NCBI GenBank assembly: GCA_030424665.1
Contig: JAUHWN010000001.1
Coordinates: 55,223-119,222, forward strand
Length of the DNA: 64,000 nucleotides
From: Bdellovibrionia bacterium
GTDB taxonomy: Bacteria > Bdellovibrionota > Bdellovibrionia > Bdellovibrionales > JAGQZY01
Direction: 5' to 3'
A model generated the notes under the pieces. It saw nothing but the letters and a program-made list of their open reading frames with translations, was not told where the DNA came from and searched no databases. Shown in pieces: positions 20,474 through 40,973 of the stretch; within the stretch, counting starts at the first letter, position 1; each line of letters begins with the position of its first letter. Made by a program: the position numbers and the translations under genes.

Positions 20474-21133
20474 TTAGTTCTTCGAGTATTTTGAAATCAC
20501 AAATGGAATAACAAACAAGCCTATTGTCGAAATCAATAGCATAGGGCCAATATGGTGCATCAGTATGTGTAGAGGAGCGTTCGCGCAATAAACATGCATG
20601 AGAGCTACAGGTAAAGAGCCTCCCGCCAAGCCAATTAATAAAGCAACTAATTTCTTTTTATAGGCATAACCGCGAACAACCATATAAGAAAGGCCGACAA
20701 TAGGTATTAACGAAACAAAAAGAGTTTCGACATTACAAAGAAAACGTCCTTTAATCATCGCTCCTTCAGGAAGTGGGCGATCGAACAAAACTCCAAATAC
20801 TGTTGACAATACATAAAGGGCAAGTGGCACTAAAGCAACAATGAGCCACTTTCTGCTCGGACCACGACCCGGGACACTGTATAAGAAGGCTAAATACCCC
20901 AAACTAAAAAAAGGTAAGAAAGCGATAACGGCTTCTAAAAAGTAGTGTGTTGTTTCAACCTGGTGATACCCCTCAATACTAAGAGGTCTATTAAACTCCA
21001 TTGCTAAAGCCACCATACAAAAAGAGAAGACCGCCCAAAACATAAAACGCGCCTCAGCCCCAAGGTGACTTGCTTCTGGCTTCAAGTCCCCTACGAGTTG
21101 ATCTAAAAATTCGTTCTTCGACGGTTTACTCAT
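20474..21133 (-). CDS. NrsF-family (DUF1109) anti-sigma factor, polytopic membrane protein
   Basis: 219 aa. N-terminal cytoplasmic FLDQLVGDLKP, then ~6 TM helices. Overlaps the sigma gene by 4 nt. Confidence 0.7.
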   Translation of the reverse strand: MSKPSKNEFLDQLVGDLKPEASHLGAEARFMFWAVFSFCMVALAMEFNRPLSIEGYHQVETTHYFLEAVIAFLPFFSLGYLAFLYSVPGRGPSRKWLIVALVPLALYVLSTVFGVLFDRPLPEGAMIKGRFLCNVETLFVSLIPIVGLSYMVVRGYAYKKKLVALLIGLAGGSLPVALMHVYCANAPLHILMHHIGPMLLISTIGLFVIPFVISKYSKN

Positions 21134-21681
21134 ATTTCACTTTCTACAATTTCTCGTAGCCTCTTATAGGCTCTCGAAATTCGCACGCGCATCGCACCTG
21201 GCGATACATTTTCCTGTTCTGCCGCCTCTTCTGTGCTTAACCCATCTAATTTGGTCAACACAATGGCTCTTTTCATTTCTTCTGGTAATTTTGCGAGTCC
21301 TTCATGAACTAATTCTTTTACAGCTTCATCACCAGTCGAGTCACTCATTTGATCAACCTGATCGCGCTCTTCATCGATGGCTGAAGTTTTTATGGAGCGC
21401 TCTCGGGCTCGAAAATAGTCGATCATTTTGTAGCGAGCGATGGCGAATAACCAGGCCTGAAAACTTCTCTTGGGGTCCCAACTCGCCTTATTTTTGTGAA
21501 TGGCGATTAAACACTCTTGGGTAAGATCTTCGGCAACACCCTGTGAAGCGACCTTCTTAATATAAAAGCGAACAAGCACGGGATAGATAGCTTCTAGAAG
21601 TTCTCTATAAGCCTTTTCATCCCCTGCCAGACTTTGAATCATTAAACTCTGCCATTGCTCTTCAAAGTCAGCTACTTTCAT
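21130..21681 (-). CDS. ECF-type RNA polymerase sigma-70 family factor
   Basis: 183 aa. Region 2 (EDLTQECLIAIHK...FQAWLFAIARYKMIDYFR) and region 4 HTH (LSTEEAAEQENVSPGAMRVRISRAYKRLRE). Confidence 0.9.
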   Translation of the reverse strand: MKVADFEEQWQSLMIQSLAGDEKAYRELLEAIYPVLVRFYIKKVASQGVAEDLTQECLIAIHKNKASWDPKRSFQAWLFAIARYKMIDYFRARERSIKTSAIDEERDQVDQMSDSTGDEAVKELVHEGLAKLPEEMKRAIVLTKLDGLSTEEAAEQENVSPGAMRVRISRAYKRLREIVESEI

Positions 21682-23734: not shown

Positions 23735-24232
23735 CTATTTAAAATCCCGATCGAGGACGGTTTTTCGACCATCCTCTCTAGCACGATCGATAGCATCTTG
23801 GCTCGCTCGTCGAACCATATCCGAGAGTACATTGAGTACAGACTGAGATGTATTCATACCCGAGACATCTTTAATGTATTGCTTGAGTTTTGAAGCCACA
23901 ATCAGGACTTCATGGTTATCAACTTTAGCTTTATCACCAGGACTCCCCTGGGTAGCAGCGGGTTGACTACGAATGATTCGACGTTGGGGTTGACTCGCTT
24001 CTGTGCTCCCCTGCTCCTTCTCAAACTCAGCCTTACTTGGCGAATGCTTTTCAATGGCACCAGCGTTCTTATGCCTGGCTCCCGGCAGATGCCGCTCCCA
24101 ACAGGAGACTGAACAAAACTGGAGGCCTGTTCGCTTGCCCTGACAGGTAGAAACACTACACTGATAGTATTTGTGGGAAAATGGGATCTCTTTCTTGCAA
24201 GCGCTACACTTTTTCCAATAATTCTGTTCCAT
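23735..24232 (-). CDS. ZZ-type zinc-finger + histone-fold protein (bacterial histone-like)
   Basis: Start chosen at ATG 24232 (MEQNYWKKCSAC...). N-terminal Cys/His pattern CxxC-x13-C-x4-C-x9-C-x3-C-x3-H-x6-H. C-terminal 60 aa VLIVASKLKQYIKDVSGMNTSQSVLNVLSDMVRRASQDAIDRAREDGRKTVLDRDF aligns with archaeal HMf-type histone fold (IKD, loop L1, A(R)xxGRKT(I/V)xxxD). Confidence 0.65.
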   Translation of the reverse strand: MEQNYWKKCSACKKEIPFSHKYYQCSVSTCQGKRTGLQFCSVSCWERHLPGARHKNAGAIEKHSPSKAEFEKEQGSTEASQPQRRIIRSQPAATQGSPGDKAKVDNHEVLIVASKLKQYIKDVSGMNTSQSVLNVLSDMVRRASQDAIDRAREDGRKTVLDRDFK

Positions 24233-24522
24233 AAAATAATGCTGACCCCTTCTCCTCAATTGATCAACGGAAAGGATGACACCAATCTCTAAACTCAATG
24301 AAAGGCCGGAGACACTTGACGCAATAGAGTCATGGGGTCATTTCAACACTGATATTCATTGGCACAGGTCTTGAAAAATATACCTATGTTGTCAGTTGAG
24401 GTGTCACTTTGGAATTTTTTTCGGAGATTATAAACATCTAACCCGTGTTTTTCCGGATTGACTCCAGAGCCACCAAAAGTGACGAAATTTATTAACCAAT
24501 AAAAAACCTTCAGAATCCTAAT

Positions 24523-25245
24523 TTGCAAAAAGGGAGTTATTCCCTTTTTGCATTTTTTATGTTTGTATTCCGACCCATGGAACTACAACTCATTAAAGAA
24601 TCAGACATGATTCAATATTACGATTTCGAAGTCGCTGTATTGCCAAAAGTGATGCTACCGACCCGTACTTTCATAGTAACTTCGGACGAAACAGCATTTA
24701 TTTTTTCTCCCGGGCCACGATTTCCGGCCCTAGATCGTTTCTTAAAGACTAAAAAAGAAATTGTCATCGTTGCACCTAACATGTTTCACCACATGTATCT
24801 TCACGAATATAGCGACCTCAAGGCAAAATATTATGGACCTCTCGAAATTTTGCGAAAAAACACACGATTCCAAAGCCACATTGATACTCCAGAGGATTTT
24901 GCGGAAAAGTATAAAAGTGACTTCGATGTTATCTCGCTCGATGGATGTCCAAATATCCAAGAGTCACTTTACTTCGTCAAAAAAGAAAAGGCTCTGATCG
25001 TTACAGACCTCGTCTTTAATTTTCAAGTTTTCACCAGTAAGATCCTTAAAGCATCGCTCTTTTTAATGGGAATCAAAGAAGAGTTGGGAACCAGCCGTCT
25101 TGTTAAACTCAACATCAAAGATAAAAAAGCATTTCGCGAATCAATTCAGAAAGTCTTAAAGTTAAAATTCAATCGAGTCCTAGTATTTCACGGAAGTACG
25201 ATTGAGAATCCAGATCAATTCAGAAGCCACGCTGCGACCCTGTGA
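24523..25245 (+). CDS. hypothetical protein, possibly DUF4336/metallo-beta-lactamase-fold-like
   Basis: 240-aa ORF (the likely start is the internal MELQLIKE at 24577). APNMFHHMYL block. Weak family assignment. Confidence 0.4.
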   Translation: MQKGSYSLFAFFMFVFRPMELQLIKESDMIQYYDFEVAVLPKVMLPTRTFIVTSDETAFIFSPGPRFPALDRFLKTKKEIVIVAPNMFHHMYLHEYSDLKAKYYGPLEILRKNTRFQSHIDTPEDFAEKYKSDFDVISLDGCPNIQESLYFVKKEKALIVTDLVFNFQVFTSKILKASLFLMGIKEELGTSRLVKLNIKDKKAFRESIQKVLKLKFNRVLVFHGSTIENPDQFRSHAATL

Positions 25246-28109: not shown

Positions 28110-30638
28110 CTAGAATGTGGTTTCGTACTGGAGATAACTCGTTCGCAATCTCGAATACAAACTACTATCAAACTTGGTCTGAAGATCATCATCAAACTCA
28201 GGTTGAGTGTCGAGAAGGTTCAAGAAACCCAGCTGAAACTTACCATAGGGTGACTTATAATTAATTTGAAAGTCAGCTTCTGTATATACCGGAGTTAAGC
28301 CTTTATTAGGGTCAAACTTTTCAACTACCGAAATAGTTCGTGCAGTAACAGCAGAACCCCAAACATTATCTTTAGACTGCCAATTAATAGTGACCACGTT
28401 TTTCCAATAAGGAAAACCATCTTCACCCAACAAGTCCCTTTTACCAAGTTCTTCATAAGATTCAGAAAAAGCGTGGAACATGACCGTATGATCAATTGAG
28501 TATCTCAAATTACCGAATGAAACTTTATGGTCGTAGGTGAGATTGATATCAAGACCATCCACATCGTCCTTGGCAAAGTTTCTAAGTGGTGCGGAAATAA
28601 ATGAAATCGAGTTACCAGGACCATTTCTTTCAACCACAGCTCCGTATTTGGCTGGATCCGCACCAGCCGCTTCAGCCTCAAGAAGCCCCTGAGCGTCTGA
28701 AGAAACAACGTCTTCAACTTTTGTACGCCAGTAATCAAAGGACATCGAAAAACCCTGCATGGGTTGAATGACCGTACCAATACTGTATGCAAAAGAAGTT
28801 TCCTCTTTAAGGTCAGGATTAGCGCCTTGTTCTGCAGGGTAAAACTGATTATTACATCCAGGTGAATTTGGATCCGCATTACAAAGTACGTAATCGCGAA
28901 CAAATAAAAAGCCCGTCAACTTAGGACCGTATGAATCTTGAAGCGTCGGTGCCTGAAAACCCGTACCAGCAGAGCCTCTAACCATAAACGTATTATTAAT
29001 TTTCCAGCGAGAAGCAATTCGAGGGTTCGTCGTTCCACCGAAATCATTATATTGGTCATGTCGAAGTGAAAGTTGCAGCTCTACTGAGTTTCCAAAGAGA
29101 CCACTTAACTCTCCAAACAAGGCTCCAACAAAACGGTTACCTCCACCAGTGACACCACCAAGGCCTAAGATTTCTCCATTGAGAGTTTCATCATCCCTTT
29201 CATCTTTGTATTCCGAAAATTGAAAGAAGGTACCAAATCCAGCTGACCAAACGGCACCCAGGTATTCTCCAAGCTCTCCATTTGCAGTGGCTTGGGCTGA
29301 ATTGATAATGTAGTAAGCTCTCGAAAATGGGTCGGTCAAAAACCCAGTGGTATTTCTTTTGGTGCTATCAAAAGGGTTGTAGGTATCATTGATAATCGCG
29401 GCTCTCATGGGAGCTCTAAGGCCGTAGTTAGAGTTCTTTTCGTCCGTTAAAAAATAATGGGTATTATTCGAAGCTTTCCATTCCCAATCACTATCTCCCC
29501 ACAAACCTTTAAAGCCAAAAACGTAACCAGCTGAAAGCTGATCAAACTGTGTTTTTCGTTTGGGTAGGTCTTTGAATCTATAGAAAACTTGAATGTCGTT
29601 GCCCGCTGTATAATTGGGAAGAGCCGTTCCCCAATTAGCAGGAGGAGCATCTGCACCGGTAAATCGCTCACCAGTGAATGTGGCTTCAAAGTTTCTTGAG
29701 TTTGAGCGGCCATATCTTAATAATAGGTCTGAGAAAAACTCTAACTCTGAACTCATCTTGTACTTGTAAGATGTGAAACTTGAAAAATCCAGACCAGGCT
29801 CAGAAACCGATTCACTCGCCAATTCTTCTTCACAAAGGCCATCGGCGTTGAGTTCAGTACAAGATGGAAAAGGGAACGTCGTATTCGCATCTGCAGTTAA
29901 ATCAATATAGTTATTAGAAAACCGAGAATCCTTGTTGATTCCCTCTAGATAATTTCGATTAGAAGCCTTAAAGGTATCTGATGCGATAATTTGAAAACTC
30001 GTCATGATTGAGCTTTTTCCCCAAGTATCGCCGTAGGCAATACTCGTTCTCAAGCTTCCACCACCTGGCTGCGATGGGACCGACAACTTAGAGGCAAATA
30101 TGATTTCATCGATATTTTCCCTCGTAATAATATTAACAACACCGGCCAGGGCATCGGAACCATAGGTCGATGAAGCACCTTCCTTTAAAATCTCGATGCG
30201 CTCTACACCCGCCAAAGGGATCACGTTGATATCGGTTCCCGAAGAATAACTATCTCCGCCTGCCGGAAGCCTCTGTCCGTTAACTAGAACTAGTGTTCGA
30301 GCCGAACCGAGTCCTTTGAGGTTGGCTCTATCGGCGCTCGATCCAAAAGGCGAAACCGTTGAGCTTCTCAAAAGTGATCCAACCTCGTTAAATCCAGAGT
30401 TCTCAATTTGTTCTCGATCTATGATTATGATCTGCGACGGGCCTTCCATATCGATTCTTCGAATCAATGAACCAGTTACTTCAATTTTTTCGACATCACT
30501 TTTTGCTGAGCCAACTTGGTTGGTTGTTTCTGCCGACGTTGTTCCCTGTGAAGCATTCGTTTCTTCAGATGAAGAATCTTGCGCTCCAGCGATAAAACTA
30601 GAAAAGATTAGTGCGATTGCAATAAGATACTTAAACAT
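28110..30638 (-). CDS. TonB-dependent outer-membrane receptor
   Basis: 842 aa. Signal peptide, plug domain (IEVTGSLIRR...ERIEILKGASSTYGSDALAGVVNIITR), long beta-barrel, C-terminal ...YETTF. Confidence 0.9.
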   Translation of the reverse strand: MFKYLIAIALIFSSFIAGAQDSSSEETNASQGTTSAETTNQVGSAKSDVEKIEVTGSLIRRIDMEGPSQIIIIDREQIENSGFNEVGSLLRSSTVSPFGSSADRANLKGLGSARTLVLVNGQRLPAGGDSYSSGTDINVIPLAGVERIEILKEGASSTYGSDALAGVVNIITRENIDEIIFASKLSVPSQPGGGSLRTSIAYGDTWGKSSIMTSFQIIASDTFKASNRNYLEGINKDSRFSNNYIDLTADANTTFPFPSCTELNADGLCEEELASESVSEPGLDFSSFTSYKYKMSSELEFFSDLLLRYGRSNSRNFEATFTGERFTGADAPPANWGTALPNYTAGNDIQVFYRFKDLPKRKTQFDQLSAGYVFGFKGLWGDSDWEWKASNNTHYFLTDEKNSNYGLRAPMRAAIINDTYNPFDSTKRNTTGFLTDPFSRAYYIINSAQATANGELGEYLGAVWSAGFGTFFQFSEYKDERDDETLNGEILGLGGVTGGGNRFVGALFGELSGLFGNSVELQLSLRHDQYNDFGGTTNPRIASRWKINNTFMVRGSAGTGFQAPTLQDSYGPKLTGFLFVRDYVLCNADPNSPGCNNQFYPAEQGANPDLKEETSFAYSIGTVIQPMQGFSMSFDYWRTKVEDVVSSDAQGLLEAEAAGADPAKYGAVVERNGPGNSISFISAPLRNFAKDDVDGLDINLTYDHKVSFGNLRYSIDHTVMFHAFSESYEELGKRDLLGEDGFPYWKNVVTINWQSKDNVWGSAVTARTISVVEKFDPNKGLTPVYTEADFQINYKSPYGKFQLGFLNLLDTQPEFDDDLQTKFDSSLYSRLRTSYLQYETTF

Positions 30639-30768
30639 ACAGTCCCCTCTTTAGACCCCTACCAAGAGTAAAATCTATAGGACAAAGGTCCCATAAGCCA
30701 CAAATGACATTATGCAAGGAGAACTTATGGTTGAATAAATACCCCTTTAAGAGGGGATTTCGCTTTTT

Positions 30769-32316
30769 CTATTCGCCAGGAGGAGCGAAAACGAGGTGAT
30801 AGAGAGTTCCTGTTCGATGATCAACATCATCCTCTTGAACCGAACACGAGATAAATAAAACGCCTCGGTTTACCTGTAAAGAACGACCAAAACCCCTAAA
30901 ATCTGACCCATCAGCAAAATTAGGAGTGATATTACCTTGAAACTCATACTTGTTACTGGAGGGGTTGAGCTTGTACATAAACACTTTTCCACTTCGACTC
31001 TGACGGTATGAGTTCGCCCTTGGAGCACCAATAAACAACTGTCCATCTGCACCGCCTGCTATAGAGATTCCAAAGGAGTCAGCACTTTCCTCTAAAAACG
31101 GATGGTTGAGCTCTTGAACCAAATCATAGAGTCCTGTTGACGGGTTTATTTTAAAAATGGCTATAAACTCTTTAAGATGTTCCCTGCCCCGGTTAGGTTG
31201 CGAAACAATAAGTAAATCTCCGATATGTTTGCTTACCTCGGCAAAGTTGTAACGAGCCGAAGTAGATTCTATAACCTGTAACAACACTCCATTCATATCA
31301 AATCGCAGGAGCACCCCTCGATTTCGCCCAGTTACTTGTTTTCGAGCGCTAACAAAAATGTCCGGTCCATCTTTTCTAACATTCCGCCCGCAATTCACAT
31401 AACCTGAAGGACAGAGAATTTCTAATTGCTTTGAAAAACTATCACTCTCGATACCTTCGCGAGAGAAAACTAAAACCTTGCCCTTAGAGTTATCAAATTC
31501 TCTATCAGCCACTATTAAATATTTAGGTAGAGCCCACATACTCGCACCAAAATTCACTGACTGGGGCTCACTAATGGACTGGACAAAATTGTACTTATTG
31601 ACCTTTCCAGGCCTTCTCTCTAAACGATAATGATAGATTTGATTCAAGGTAGAAGAGGAGATAAATAACTCTTCTTGTGTCGCAGCCATCGATTGACCAA
31701 ATTTAGTTTCGAAATTATCGGTCAATAAGGGAGAAAGAATTTTCTGAACAGGGTAAACTTTTTTGGTTTCAGAATTAATTCCATAAATCGTAACTTTTCC
31801 AGAGTTAATATGGCCATCAACATTTTTTCTCGGAGAGGCTACGGCAATTCTCTTGCCCGATACTCTCAGTTCACTGCCAAATGTTTGGTTTTGTGAATCA
31901 CTATTGACAGCAAGAGGTTCAACCACTTGAATTTCTAGATCTTTAACTTCACCCGTGAGAGCCGTTGCACGAATTATCAGATTTCCGATGTAACCCGGGT
32001 CAACATAAACGACTGCACCTATACCCTTATCTAAAGTTTCAACTCGGGCATCTCCCACTAAGAGCTCAAATGAAAATCCCTCAAGTATGAGACCCGCAGG
32101 TTCTACAGAAAATATTGATCCACTTTCTGTCTCTGGAGGATAGAGAAACTGAACTCCAGCATAACCATCACCATTACCAGATTGTTGGTTAGTGAGATCA
32201 ATTCCAAATTGACCGAACTGACCATCGAGGTTGAGTTGACCACAGTTTTGAAAAAGAAGTACTAGGAGAGCTGCGAAAAATATAAGAATATATTTTGTGA
32301 CTCTTTGCATGTTCAT
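30769..32316 (-). CDS. FG-GAP-like beta-propeller lipoprotein (FQNC lipobox)
   Basis: Start set at ATG 32316 (MNMQRVTKYILIF..., GGGGA RBS). Lipobox LLFQNC. Recurring FGxS(L/M)xxxxxxLx(V/I)(A/S)xP repeats (FGSELRVSGKRIAVASP, FGQSMAAT, FGASMWAL, FGISIAGGADGQLFIGAP, FGRSLQV). Confidence 0.6.
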   Translation of the reverse strand: MNMQRVTKYILIFFAALLVLLFQNCGQLNLDGQFGQFGIDLTNQQSGNGDGYAGVQFLYPPETESGSIFSVEPAGLILEGFSFELLVGDARVETLDKGIGAVVYVDPGYIGNLIIRATALTGEVKDLEIQVVEPLAVNSDSQNQTFGSELRVSGKRIAVASPRKNVDGHINSGKVTIYGINSETKKVYPVQKILSPLLTDNFETKFGQSMAATQEELFISSSTLNQIYHYRLERRPGKVNKYNFVQSISEPQSVNFGASMWALPKYLIVADREFDNSKGKVLVFSREGIESDSFSKQLEILCPSGYVNCGRNVRKDGPDIFVSARKQVTGRNRGVLLRFDMNGVLLQVIESTSARYNFAEVSKHIGDLLIVSQPNRGREHLKEFIAIFKINPSTGLYDLVQELNHPFLEESADSFGISIAGGADGQLFIGAPRANSYRQSRSGKVFMYKLNPSSNKYEFQGNITPNFADGSDFRGFGRSLQVNRGVLFISCSVQEDDVDHRTGTLYHLVFAPPGE

Positions 32317-32516
32317 TTGAAATTCCCCACCATTTACTATCGAGTCCATCTCCCCAGACGAACTCAACCCCGATACATCTATAGGTTATACGAAAACCGT
32401 CAAAGATATGAGTAACAATGATGTCTATAAAACATTCCTCAAAATTCTATGTCTAATACTTTTTCATTTTCCCATTTTGATACAATTCAGAAATTACTCA
32501 ATGAAATAAGCGCTTT

Positions 32517-40620: not shown

Positions 40621-40973
40621 GGGGGCGTAATGGTTTCGACGTGGGTGTTGAAGTCTGAGGAGCATGCCGGGGCGCTCGAGGTCCTCGTCAAAAACGAGCA
40701 ATCTTTTTAGTTGGCGAAGCTAACTATGCTATGGCTGCCTAATTAGGCTGCCCACTGAACCTTCCGGCGACCGCGCGGTTGGGAATGTGTCACTTTAGTG
40801 GTCTCGATCAAAACTTGGTGTCTCAGGGGGTTTTGATTTAAATAAACCTAGGACAAATCTTTTGGAAGTTTGTCTGTGGAAGTTCGAAAGATTATCAAAC
40901 ATAGACTAAGCATGTAGCCCGCCTTTGCATGGATCGTTCGCGGACGGGGGTTCGATTCCCCCCGCCTCCACCA
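40621..40973 (+). ncRNA. ssrA: tmRNA (transfer-messenger RNA)
   Basis: 5' GGGGGCGTAATGGTTTCGACG. 3' T-arm GGGGGTTCGATTCCCCCC plus acceptor CGCCTCC-A-CCA pairing with the 5' end (G-U at position 3). Internal tag reading frame ends ...GEANYAMAA-TAA (stop 40740-40742). Resume codon not determined. Confidence 0.95.

Follow-up and report, generated by a model that had tools for sequence, protein, structure and literature searches.

The 64-kb window analysed here (the whole stretch of DNA under study, from a Bdellovibrionia bacterium contig) carries on its minus strand, at 23735..24232, a gene for a 165-residue ZZ histone, in which an N-terminal zinc module is joined by a disordered linker to a truncated histone fold. 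Bacterial histones have been characterised experimentally only since 2023 (HBb and HLp), and the ZZ histones are one of five α3-histone subfamilies. The first-pass annotation of the window, made from the letters alone, had noted that zinc-finger-fused, α3-truncated bacterial histones are catalogued computationally; it spotted the protein correctly, and the family in question was published by Schwab et al. 2024 under the name of ZZ histones (PMC11390915). We consider it probable that the window protein forms an HBb-like homodimer that binds and bends DNA non-specifically, carries tethered basic zinc modules and serves the nucleoid, at low copy number, as an architectural or adaptor protein.

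The gene and its family

The open reading frame (ORF) at 23735-24232 is a real gene under purifying selection. It runs from an ATG at 24232 to a stop codon at 23735-23737, and was delineated from the ORF list, homologues and codon changes. In a 5.8-billion-protein collection, 1316 homologues were found at E≤1e-3, the closest of which (P0001; P numbers denote homologous proteins and L numbers related loci) is also 165 residues long and is 97% identical at 100% coverage. Compared with the orthologue in L001 (94% nucleotide identity), the gene shows 24 synonymous and 5 non-synonymous changes, and all five of the latter lie at residues 76-97, in the linker or at its edge. A TTG start at 24298, which would add 22 codons and give a protein of 187 residues, was rejected: homologues start within a few residues of the ATG and have no equivalent of the extension. 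Furthermore, the 22 extra codons differ from L001 at just two places, both non-synonymous, which supports the ATG start.

In the published description of ZZ histones, a ZZ-type finger at the N-terminus, with one C4 and one C2H2 zinc site, precedes a histone with an α3 like that of the bacterial dimer histones, and the finger resembles the ZZ domains of HERC2, p300 and ZZZ3 in structure (PMC11390915). The window protein has the C4 and C2H2 ligands, the truncated α3 fold, the RxTxxxxD motif and the taxonomic distribution of this family. Among GTDB species genomes there were at least 400 matches confirmed by tblastn, and the best 80 of these, which were examined as loci, come mostly from Bdellovibrionota and Myxococcota metagenome-assembled genomes, together with B. 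bacteriovorus Bd5, whose protein (L036) is 52% identical to the window protein. Its finger-linker-fold architecture and RxTxxxxD motif are those of D0LYE7 of Haliangium ochraceum and of Bd3044, with nothing categorically different; what the window provides is an uncharacterised orthologue from a Bdellovibrionota-like genome of 41% GC. All eight predicted ligands of a Haliangium-like homologue (L042: C20, C23, C36, C41, C51, C55, H59 and H65) map one-to-one onto those of the window protein. For D0LYE7, Schwab et al. give C20, C23, C51 and C53 as the ligands of the C4 site; in L042, which has the same numbering, residue 53 is valine and the cysteine is C55, and because of this the published C53 is probably a misprint.

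The ZZ histone of B. bacteriovorus is weakly expressed and of low abundance (PMC11390915). Hocher et al. 2023 describe Bd3044 as another histone-fold protein of this species, longer and less abundant than the first, and report it in 37% of Bdellovibrionota genomes. From these two descriptions and from the Bd5 homologue L036, we infer that Bd3044 is a ZZ histone. Transcripts of bd0055 and bd3044 both peak late in growth phase, at T260 (bioRxiv 10.1101/2025.09.24.678257, a 2025 preprint). According to a review, both genes are essential and deletion of Bd3044 is lethal (PMC11318664), whereas the passages of Hocher et al. 2023 considered here describe deletion attempts for bd0055 only.

Two variant architectures occur among the relatives. 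Roughly one in ten close homologues is a tandem form of about 250 residues, in which one ZZ module is followed by two histone folds (ZZ-HF-HF), both of which keep the MNT[SA] and RKT...D motifs. Their existence favours a dimer of histone folds as the putative working unit of the family. The zinc module, for its part, can exist without a histone, because at least one complete ZZ-only ORF was found, of 81 residues and on a contig of 68% GC (P0247; L083 624-869); no histone fold is present in any frame within the remaining 160 nucleotides of L083 downstream of it. P0236 and P0242 resemble this ZZ-only protein. Examples of the tandem form, on contigs of 66% GC, are P0016 (L084 1325-2101, 258 residues), P0019, P0031, P0065, P0103 and P0118; the tandem gene of L084 adjoins genes for an enoyl-CoA hydratase, a CoA-transferase and a Ser/Thr kinase. 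Apparent fusions of 506 and 935 residues in the locus scan were rejected as artefacts of stop-free frames in high-GC contigs.

The histone fold

Residues 108-165 (23738..23911, minus strand) are an α3-truncated, closely HBb-like histone fold. The histone fold that the first-pass annotation had placed at about residues 105-165 was recovered by three approaches: by phmmer against PDB sequences, by a family profile and by Foldseek. With phmmer, HBb/Bd0055 (8CMP, 8FVX) was matched at E=9e-9 over residues 108-164. The profile of the family's C-terminal part matched HBb at 1.8e-21, Leptospira HLp at 4.9e-10, HTkC at 3.8e-9, HmvA at 5e-6 and HMfB at 0.004. A full-length AlphaFold2 model, built from 49 family sequences, had a mean predicted local distance difference test score (pLDDT) of 75, with blocks at 82-93 from residue 121 onward. 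Superposition of this model on HBb with Foldseek gave template modelling (TM) scores of 0.84-0.89 and a root-mean-square deviation (rmsd) of 1.1-1.2 Å over 57-58 residues, at 42-43% identity; HLp and HTkC followed, then eukaryotic and archaeal histones, among them HMfB (probability 0.99, TM 0.66). HBb was thus the top PDB match by sequence, by profile and by fold.

In the model, α1 spans residues 113-124 (23861-23896), the L1 loop (GMNTS) residues 125-129 and α2 residues 130-153 (23774-23845); L2 (residues 154-160, DGRKTVL) and a one-turn α3 (residues 161-164) close the protein (23738-23773), all on the minus strand. These boundaries agree with the helix-by-helix mapping onto archaeal histones made in the first-pass annotation, and its statement that the protein stops early in α3 is borne out by the single turn. 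Its quotation of the C-terminal stretch needs correction: the stretch given as 60 residues has 56, and the terminal lysine had been dropped, so that ...LDRDF* should read ...LDRDFK*. Since α3 is cut to one turn, the protein lacks the interface for tetramerisation and hypernucleosome formation. A single-turn α3 has been described for HBb too (PMC11317129). Archaeal HMfA and HMfB (PF00808) share the histone fold with its RxTxxxxD motif and differ in that the window protein's α3 is a single turn and its PF00808 score lies below the cut-off.

The residues through which HBb contacts DNA are T8, S9, K10, K12, K16, N22, T23, S24, K52, T53 and R57, and its RD clamp is formed by R51 and D58 together with D49 (PMC11317129). 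Published HBb positions were transferred to the window protein through the PDB phmmer alignment, in which the window number equals the HBb number plus 105. The eleven contacts then correspond, in the same order, to A113, S114, K115, K117, K121, N127, T128, S129, K157, T158 and R162, so that 10 of the 11 are kept. The clamp corresponds to R156 and D163 with D154, and the KT motif of HBb to K157-T158. Conservation was scored in the 49 aligned family sequences: R156, T158 and D163, which belong to the RxTxxxxD motif and RD clamp, are invariant, and S114, K117, S129, K157 and R162 are each at least 90% conserved. The likeness to HBb (PDB 8CMP, 8FVX, 9EZZ, 9F0E) extends from the truncated fold (43% identity, rmsd 1.1 Å) to the RD clamp and the KT motif. 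The two proteins differ in that HBb consists of one stand-alone domain of about 60 residues and is highly abundant and probably essential, whereas the window protein has 165 residues, with a 107-residue N-terminal addition made up of the zinc module and linker.

The zinc module

The N-terminal domain (residues 1-76; 24005..24232, minus strand) was delimited from its invariant Cys/His residues, a model of the isolated domain and Foldseek. Its ligands span C9 to H54 (24071-24208, minus strand) with the spacing CxxC-x12-C-x4-C-x9-C-x3-C-x3-H-x5-H, that is, C9, C12, C25, C30, C40, C44, H48 and H54. The first-pass annotation had identified the ligands and most spacings, with x13 in place of x12 and a last interval of x6 in place of x5. 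All eight are invariant in the 49-sequence alignment as well as in a second one of 37 sequences, and K13, V27, S28, R34 and F39 are invariant too. By homology to D0LYE7, we propose one zinc site formed by C9, C12, C40 and C44 and another by C25, C30, H48 and H54. The separate AlphaFold2 model of the domain had a pLDDT of 83.5. When it was used as a Foldseek query, 13 of the 15 best PDB neighbours were ZZ domains (KCMF1, BIG, p62, HERC2 and PRT1), with the dystrophin and p300/CBP ZZ domains lower in the list and the MYM/TRASH finger of ZMYM5 (2das) also present.

Likeness to the eukaryotic ZZ domains (p62/SQSTM1, HERC2, p300/CBP, KCMF1, BIG and PRT1; PF00569) lies in the predicted cross-brace fold with two zincs and in local sequence echoes, Y-x-C-S-V...C and [LF]-C-S-V-x-C. 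The differences lie in the ligand pairs, which are C-x4-C, C-x3-C and H-x5-H in the window protein in contrast to C-x2-C and H-x(1-3)-H in eukaryotes, in the loop between ligands 4 and 5, which has four additional residues and is basic where the eukaryotic loop is acidic, in the pocket for N-degrons or the H3 tail, which is not conserved in ZZ histones, and in the lack of similarity at profile level. By sequence, the module falls in no curated family; there were only weak Pfam matches, to C1_2, DUF7576, zf-FCS, zf-FLZ and zf-HIT, and its family profile found nothing relevant among PDB sequences.

The linker and its conserved motif

Between the two domains lies a disordered and fast-evolving linker (residues 77-107; 23912..24004, minus strand), as judged from pLDDT, codon changes and length variation. 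Its residues 78-103 have pLDDT values below 50, and it is rich in Ser, Thr, Pro and Ala. In the window protein it is about 30 residues long, and across the family it ranges from 32 to 138. Within it, P82-Q-R-R-I-I87 (23972..23989, minus strand) is an instance of a motif, P-x-R-R-I-[IV], that stands out from shuffled linkers: it occurs in 100 of the 109 single-histone-fold homologues, while about 1 in 119 is expected from shuffled linkers. In a wider set of 212, 151 have the strict motif and many of the others a degenerate one. It is missing from 11 of the 12 tandem ZZ-HF-HF forms. Schwab et al. 2024 do not, so far as we found, mention the motif in their main text. A proposed co-variation of the motif with zinc-module residues 49-50 or 60 was unconvincing, because many members without the motif keep L/V-P and because the tandem forms represent few clades.

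A probable nucleoid protein and the alternatives

A nucleoid or chromatin role is a reasonable reading of these features. We infer that, as in HBb, the histone folds would homodimerise through their antiparallel α2 helices, that the dimer would bind non-specifically to the backbone along the minor groove of DNA and would bend the DNA, that each chain would hold two structural zinc ions, and that the zinc modules would reach a second binding target, which may be a partner protein or more DNA. The predicted DNA contacts are S114, K115 and K117 at the N-terminus of α1, N127, T128 and S129 in L1, and K157, T158 and R162 in L2 and α3. Each homodimer would therefore carry two zinc modules, both strongly basic, at the ends of flexible linkers some 30 residues long. 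Because the B. bacteriovorus ZZ histone is of low abundance, a role in bulk packaging seems unlikely, and the protein would probably have a specialised role at low copy number, as an architectural or adaptor protein of the nucleoid rather than as bulk chromatin.

Several findings weigh against this reading. In the histone fold, the HBb contact T8 is replaced by alanine (A113). No neighbouring gene is conserved across 81 related loci that could give functional context, and we found no experimental work on ZZ histones themselves in the literature. Most of the points concern the zinc module. Its matches to ZZ domains are individually non-significant (Foldseek E 0.06-0.3, TM 0.4-0.6, rmsd 3.4-3.8 Å). 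The Pfam ZZ family PF00569 was not matched even at E≤10, either by the window protein or by 37 family members, and hhalign of the module against the p62 ZZ domain gave a probability of 2.5%. A p62 ZZ query, the sequence of which agrees with PDB 7R1O, finds HERC2, MIB1, BIG, KCMF1, p300 and CBP by phmmer. In a HMMER search of 1.84 billion representatives, the N-terminal profile matched 292 clusters at E≤1e-3; since these are so few, it evidently misses the very numerous eukaryotic ZZ domains. Among the matches listed (150 of the 292 clusters), all bear the same family signature, and at the level of sequence the zinc-domain family is sharply bounded, with about 290 clusters at 50% identity. Because sequence profiles fail while the fold neighbours are mostly ZZ domains, "ZZ-like", the term of the first-pass annotation, is a fair structural label for the predicted fold and not a demonstrated homology; it holds at the level of the fold and finds no counterpart in a Pfam ZZ sequence match.

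The binding pocket of the module likewise departs from that of its namesakes. In ZZ histones it is not conserved relative to eukaryotic ZZ domains (PMC11390915). D129 and the P-D-Y-D stretch of p62 align, with low confidence, to S10 and to the basic loop Q31-G-K-R-T-G36, which is longer than its p62 counterpart and holds the invariant R34. The acidic pocket with which p62 receives a peptide N-terminus (D129, D147 and D149) is accordingly not matched in the window protein, as far as this low-confidence alignment goes. The zinc module is also the most basic part of the protein, with a net charge of +8 (family median +5) compared with +1 for the histone fold. Both this charge pattern and the apparent absence of an acidic pocket make a classical reader of N-termini less likely.

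The same properties give some footing to the alternative that survives best, itself unlikely: a basic, family-specific two-zinc domain that is not a canonical ZZ reader, the RRI[IV] motif, or both would serve as a second DNA-binding or dimer-dimer element, and no separate protein would be recruited. One dimer could then bridge two DNA segments, or dimers could polymerise head-to-tail along DNA. Besides the net charge and the basic loop in place of the acidic pocket of p62, three conserved residues of the module are basic, K13 and R34 being invariant and R53 at least 90% conserved, and the linker motif is strongly kept in the members that would form homodimers and lost in 11 of the 12 ZZ-HF-HF forms. 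If this alternative were true, the protein would be a zinc-dependent, low-copy switch of chromatin architecture, active in the late part of the predatory growth phase, and single-chain ZZ-HF-HF forms would have lost the motif because its function depends on the homodimeric state. However, no ZZ domain is known to bind DNA, and AlphaFold2 gives the linker, at pLDDT below 50, no docked conformation. Moreover, the motif is degenerate or missing in several single-fold lineages, and the tandem forms are few clades, so its loss from them may be a lineage effect.

A regulator acting at specific sequences or loci is a quite improbable explanation. The histone fold would here be a dimeric, NF-Y-like scaffold and the zinc module would contact RNA polymerase or another regulator, so as to control a regulon such as late growth-phase genes. 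The low abundance and timed expression of Bd3044 would suit such a protein, eukaryotic ZZ domains are protein-interaction modules, and the promoter region of the window gene is unusually conserved (see below), which suggests tight regulation. Yet the conserved DNA contacts are the non-specific backbone contacts of the HBb type, no base-reading element is evident, and there is no conserved target or partner gene nearby.

We give very little credence to a metal-sensing domain of the TRASH/FCS type, whose cysteine sites would control DNA binding through the reversible uptake of zinc, copper or some other metal, so that this nucleoid protein would respond to metal or redox state. The F-C-S-x-x-C motif and the C-x2-C...C-x3-C layout do resemble FCS, TRASH and MYM treble-clef fingers, the weak Pfam matches include zf-FCS, zf-FLZ and zf-HIT, and Foldseek matched the ZMYM5 TRASH domain (2das) with a probability of 0.90. 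But those fingers hold one zinc with four ligands, whereas in the window protein a second invariant C2H2 set is interleaved, and the eight ligands, all invariant and arranged as in a cross-brace, suggest a pair of structural zinc sites. ZZ domains also rank above TRASH in the Foldseek search, there was no significant match to a TRASH or YHS profile, and no metal-homeostasis genes lie nearby.

Finally, a spurious ORF or a chance histone-like match, to which the single-sequence scores below curated cut-offs might point (Pfam PF00808, E=0.17, 12.6 bits against a gathering cut-off of 21.4; NCBIfam archaeal-histone NF043032, E=2e-4, 21.6 against 50), is refuted by the 1316 homologues, the at least 400 genome matches confirmed by tblastn, the purifying selection and the strong PDB matches to HBb.

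The window adds one more ZZ-histone orthologue, and what the zinc module binds is no more testable here than with Bd3044 in the culturable B. bacteriovorus. The linker motif, the single-chain ZZ+HF+HF forms, the ZZ-only ORF, the reversal of charge at the ZZ pocket and the sharp boundary of the zinc-domain family are additions that offer concrete experimental handles on the ZZ-histone family.

Upstream region, gene neighbourhood and other features

The 400 nucleotides upstream of the gene (24233..24632) form a conserved intergenic region, presumed to be promoter or regulatory DNA shared with a divergently transcribed, unannotated ORF of 240 residues. It is 96.5% identical to L001, compared with a mean of 89% over 20 kb and with 60-82% in other intergenic blocks. 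A structured RNA was rejected here, as the region gave no Rfam match and no stable RNA fold (z=0.30). A 61-residue ORF within it (24343-24528, minus strand) was rejected as a gene because it shows three adjacent non-synonymous changes relative to L001, and since that ORF is non-coding, the region is probably regulatory DNA rather than a gene. A perfect palindrome with a 13-bp stem (TGCAAAAAGGGAG-TTA-TTCCCTTTTTGCA) lies at 24524-24552 and is followed by a run of T on the plus strand; it could be an operator or a terminator. It sits at the mechanically assigned TTG start of the divergent 240-residue ORF, which suggests that translation of this ORF really begins at a more downstream codon, in line with the 228-residue gene call in L001.

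The ZZ-histone gene is monocistronic and convergent with a gene for a cytochrome-c-domain protein. When all ORFs of the 81 related loci and the window were clustered, no neighbour family proved to be conserved: the best cluster covered 11 loci and held generic response-regulator paralogues, whose position varied from locus to locus, and the second best was made up of spurious high-GC ORFs. The neighbours in the window are functionally unrelated to it (the cytochrome-c-domain protein, an S9 peptidase, a pair of extracytoplasmic function (ECF) sigma factor and NrsF, a TPR protein, a racemase and a TonB receptor). With unrelated neighbours, none of them conserved, an operon partner was rejected. 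The 64-kb window holds no second histone gene.

Of the other features, the gene for the ECF sigma factor (21130-21681, minus strand) is the first of a pair that spans 20474-21681; the gene for an NrsF-family anti-sigma factor (20474-21133, minus strand) follows with an overlap of 4 nucleotides, and the two have the arrangement of a typical, presumably co-transcribed pair. A transfer-messenger RNA (tmRNA) gene lies on the plus strand at 40621-40973 (Rfam RF00023, 165.5 bits) and encodes the tag peptide GEANYAMAA. A block at about 30633-31632 is only 60-80% identical to L001 within a neighbourhood that is otherwise about 90% identical; it covers the 3' (C-terminal) part of a minus-strand ORF of 532 residues (30769-32367) and the spacer that follows, and its low identity therefore marks it as a locally fast-evolving or recombined segment.

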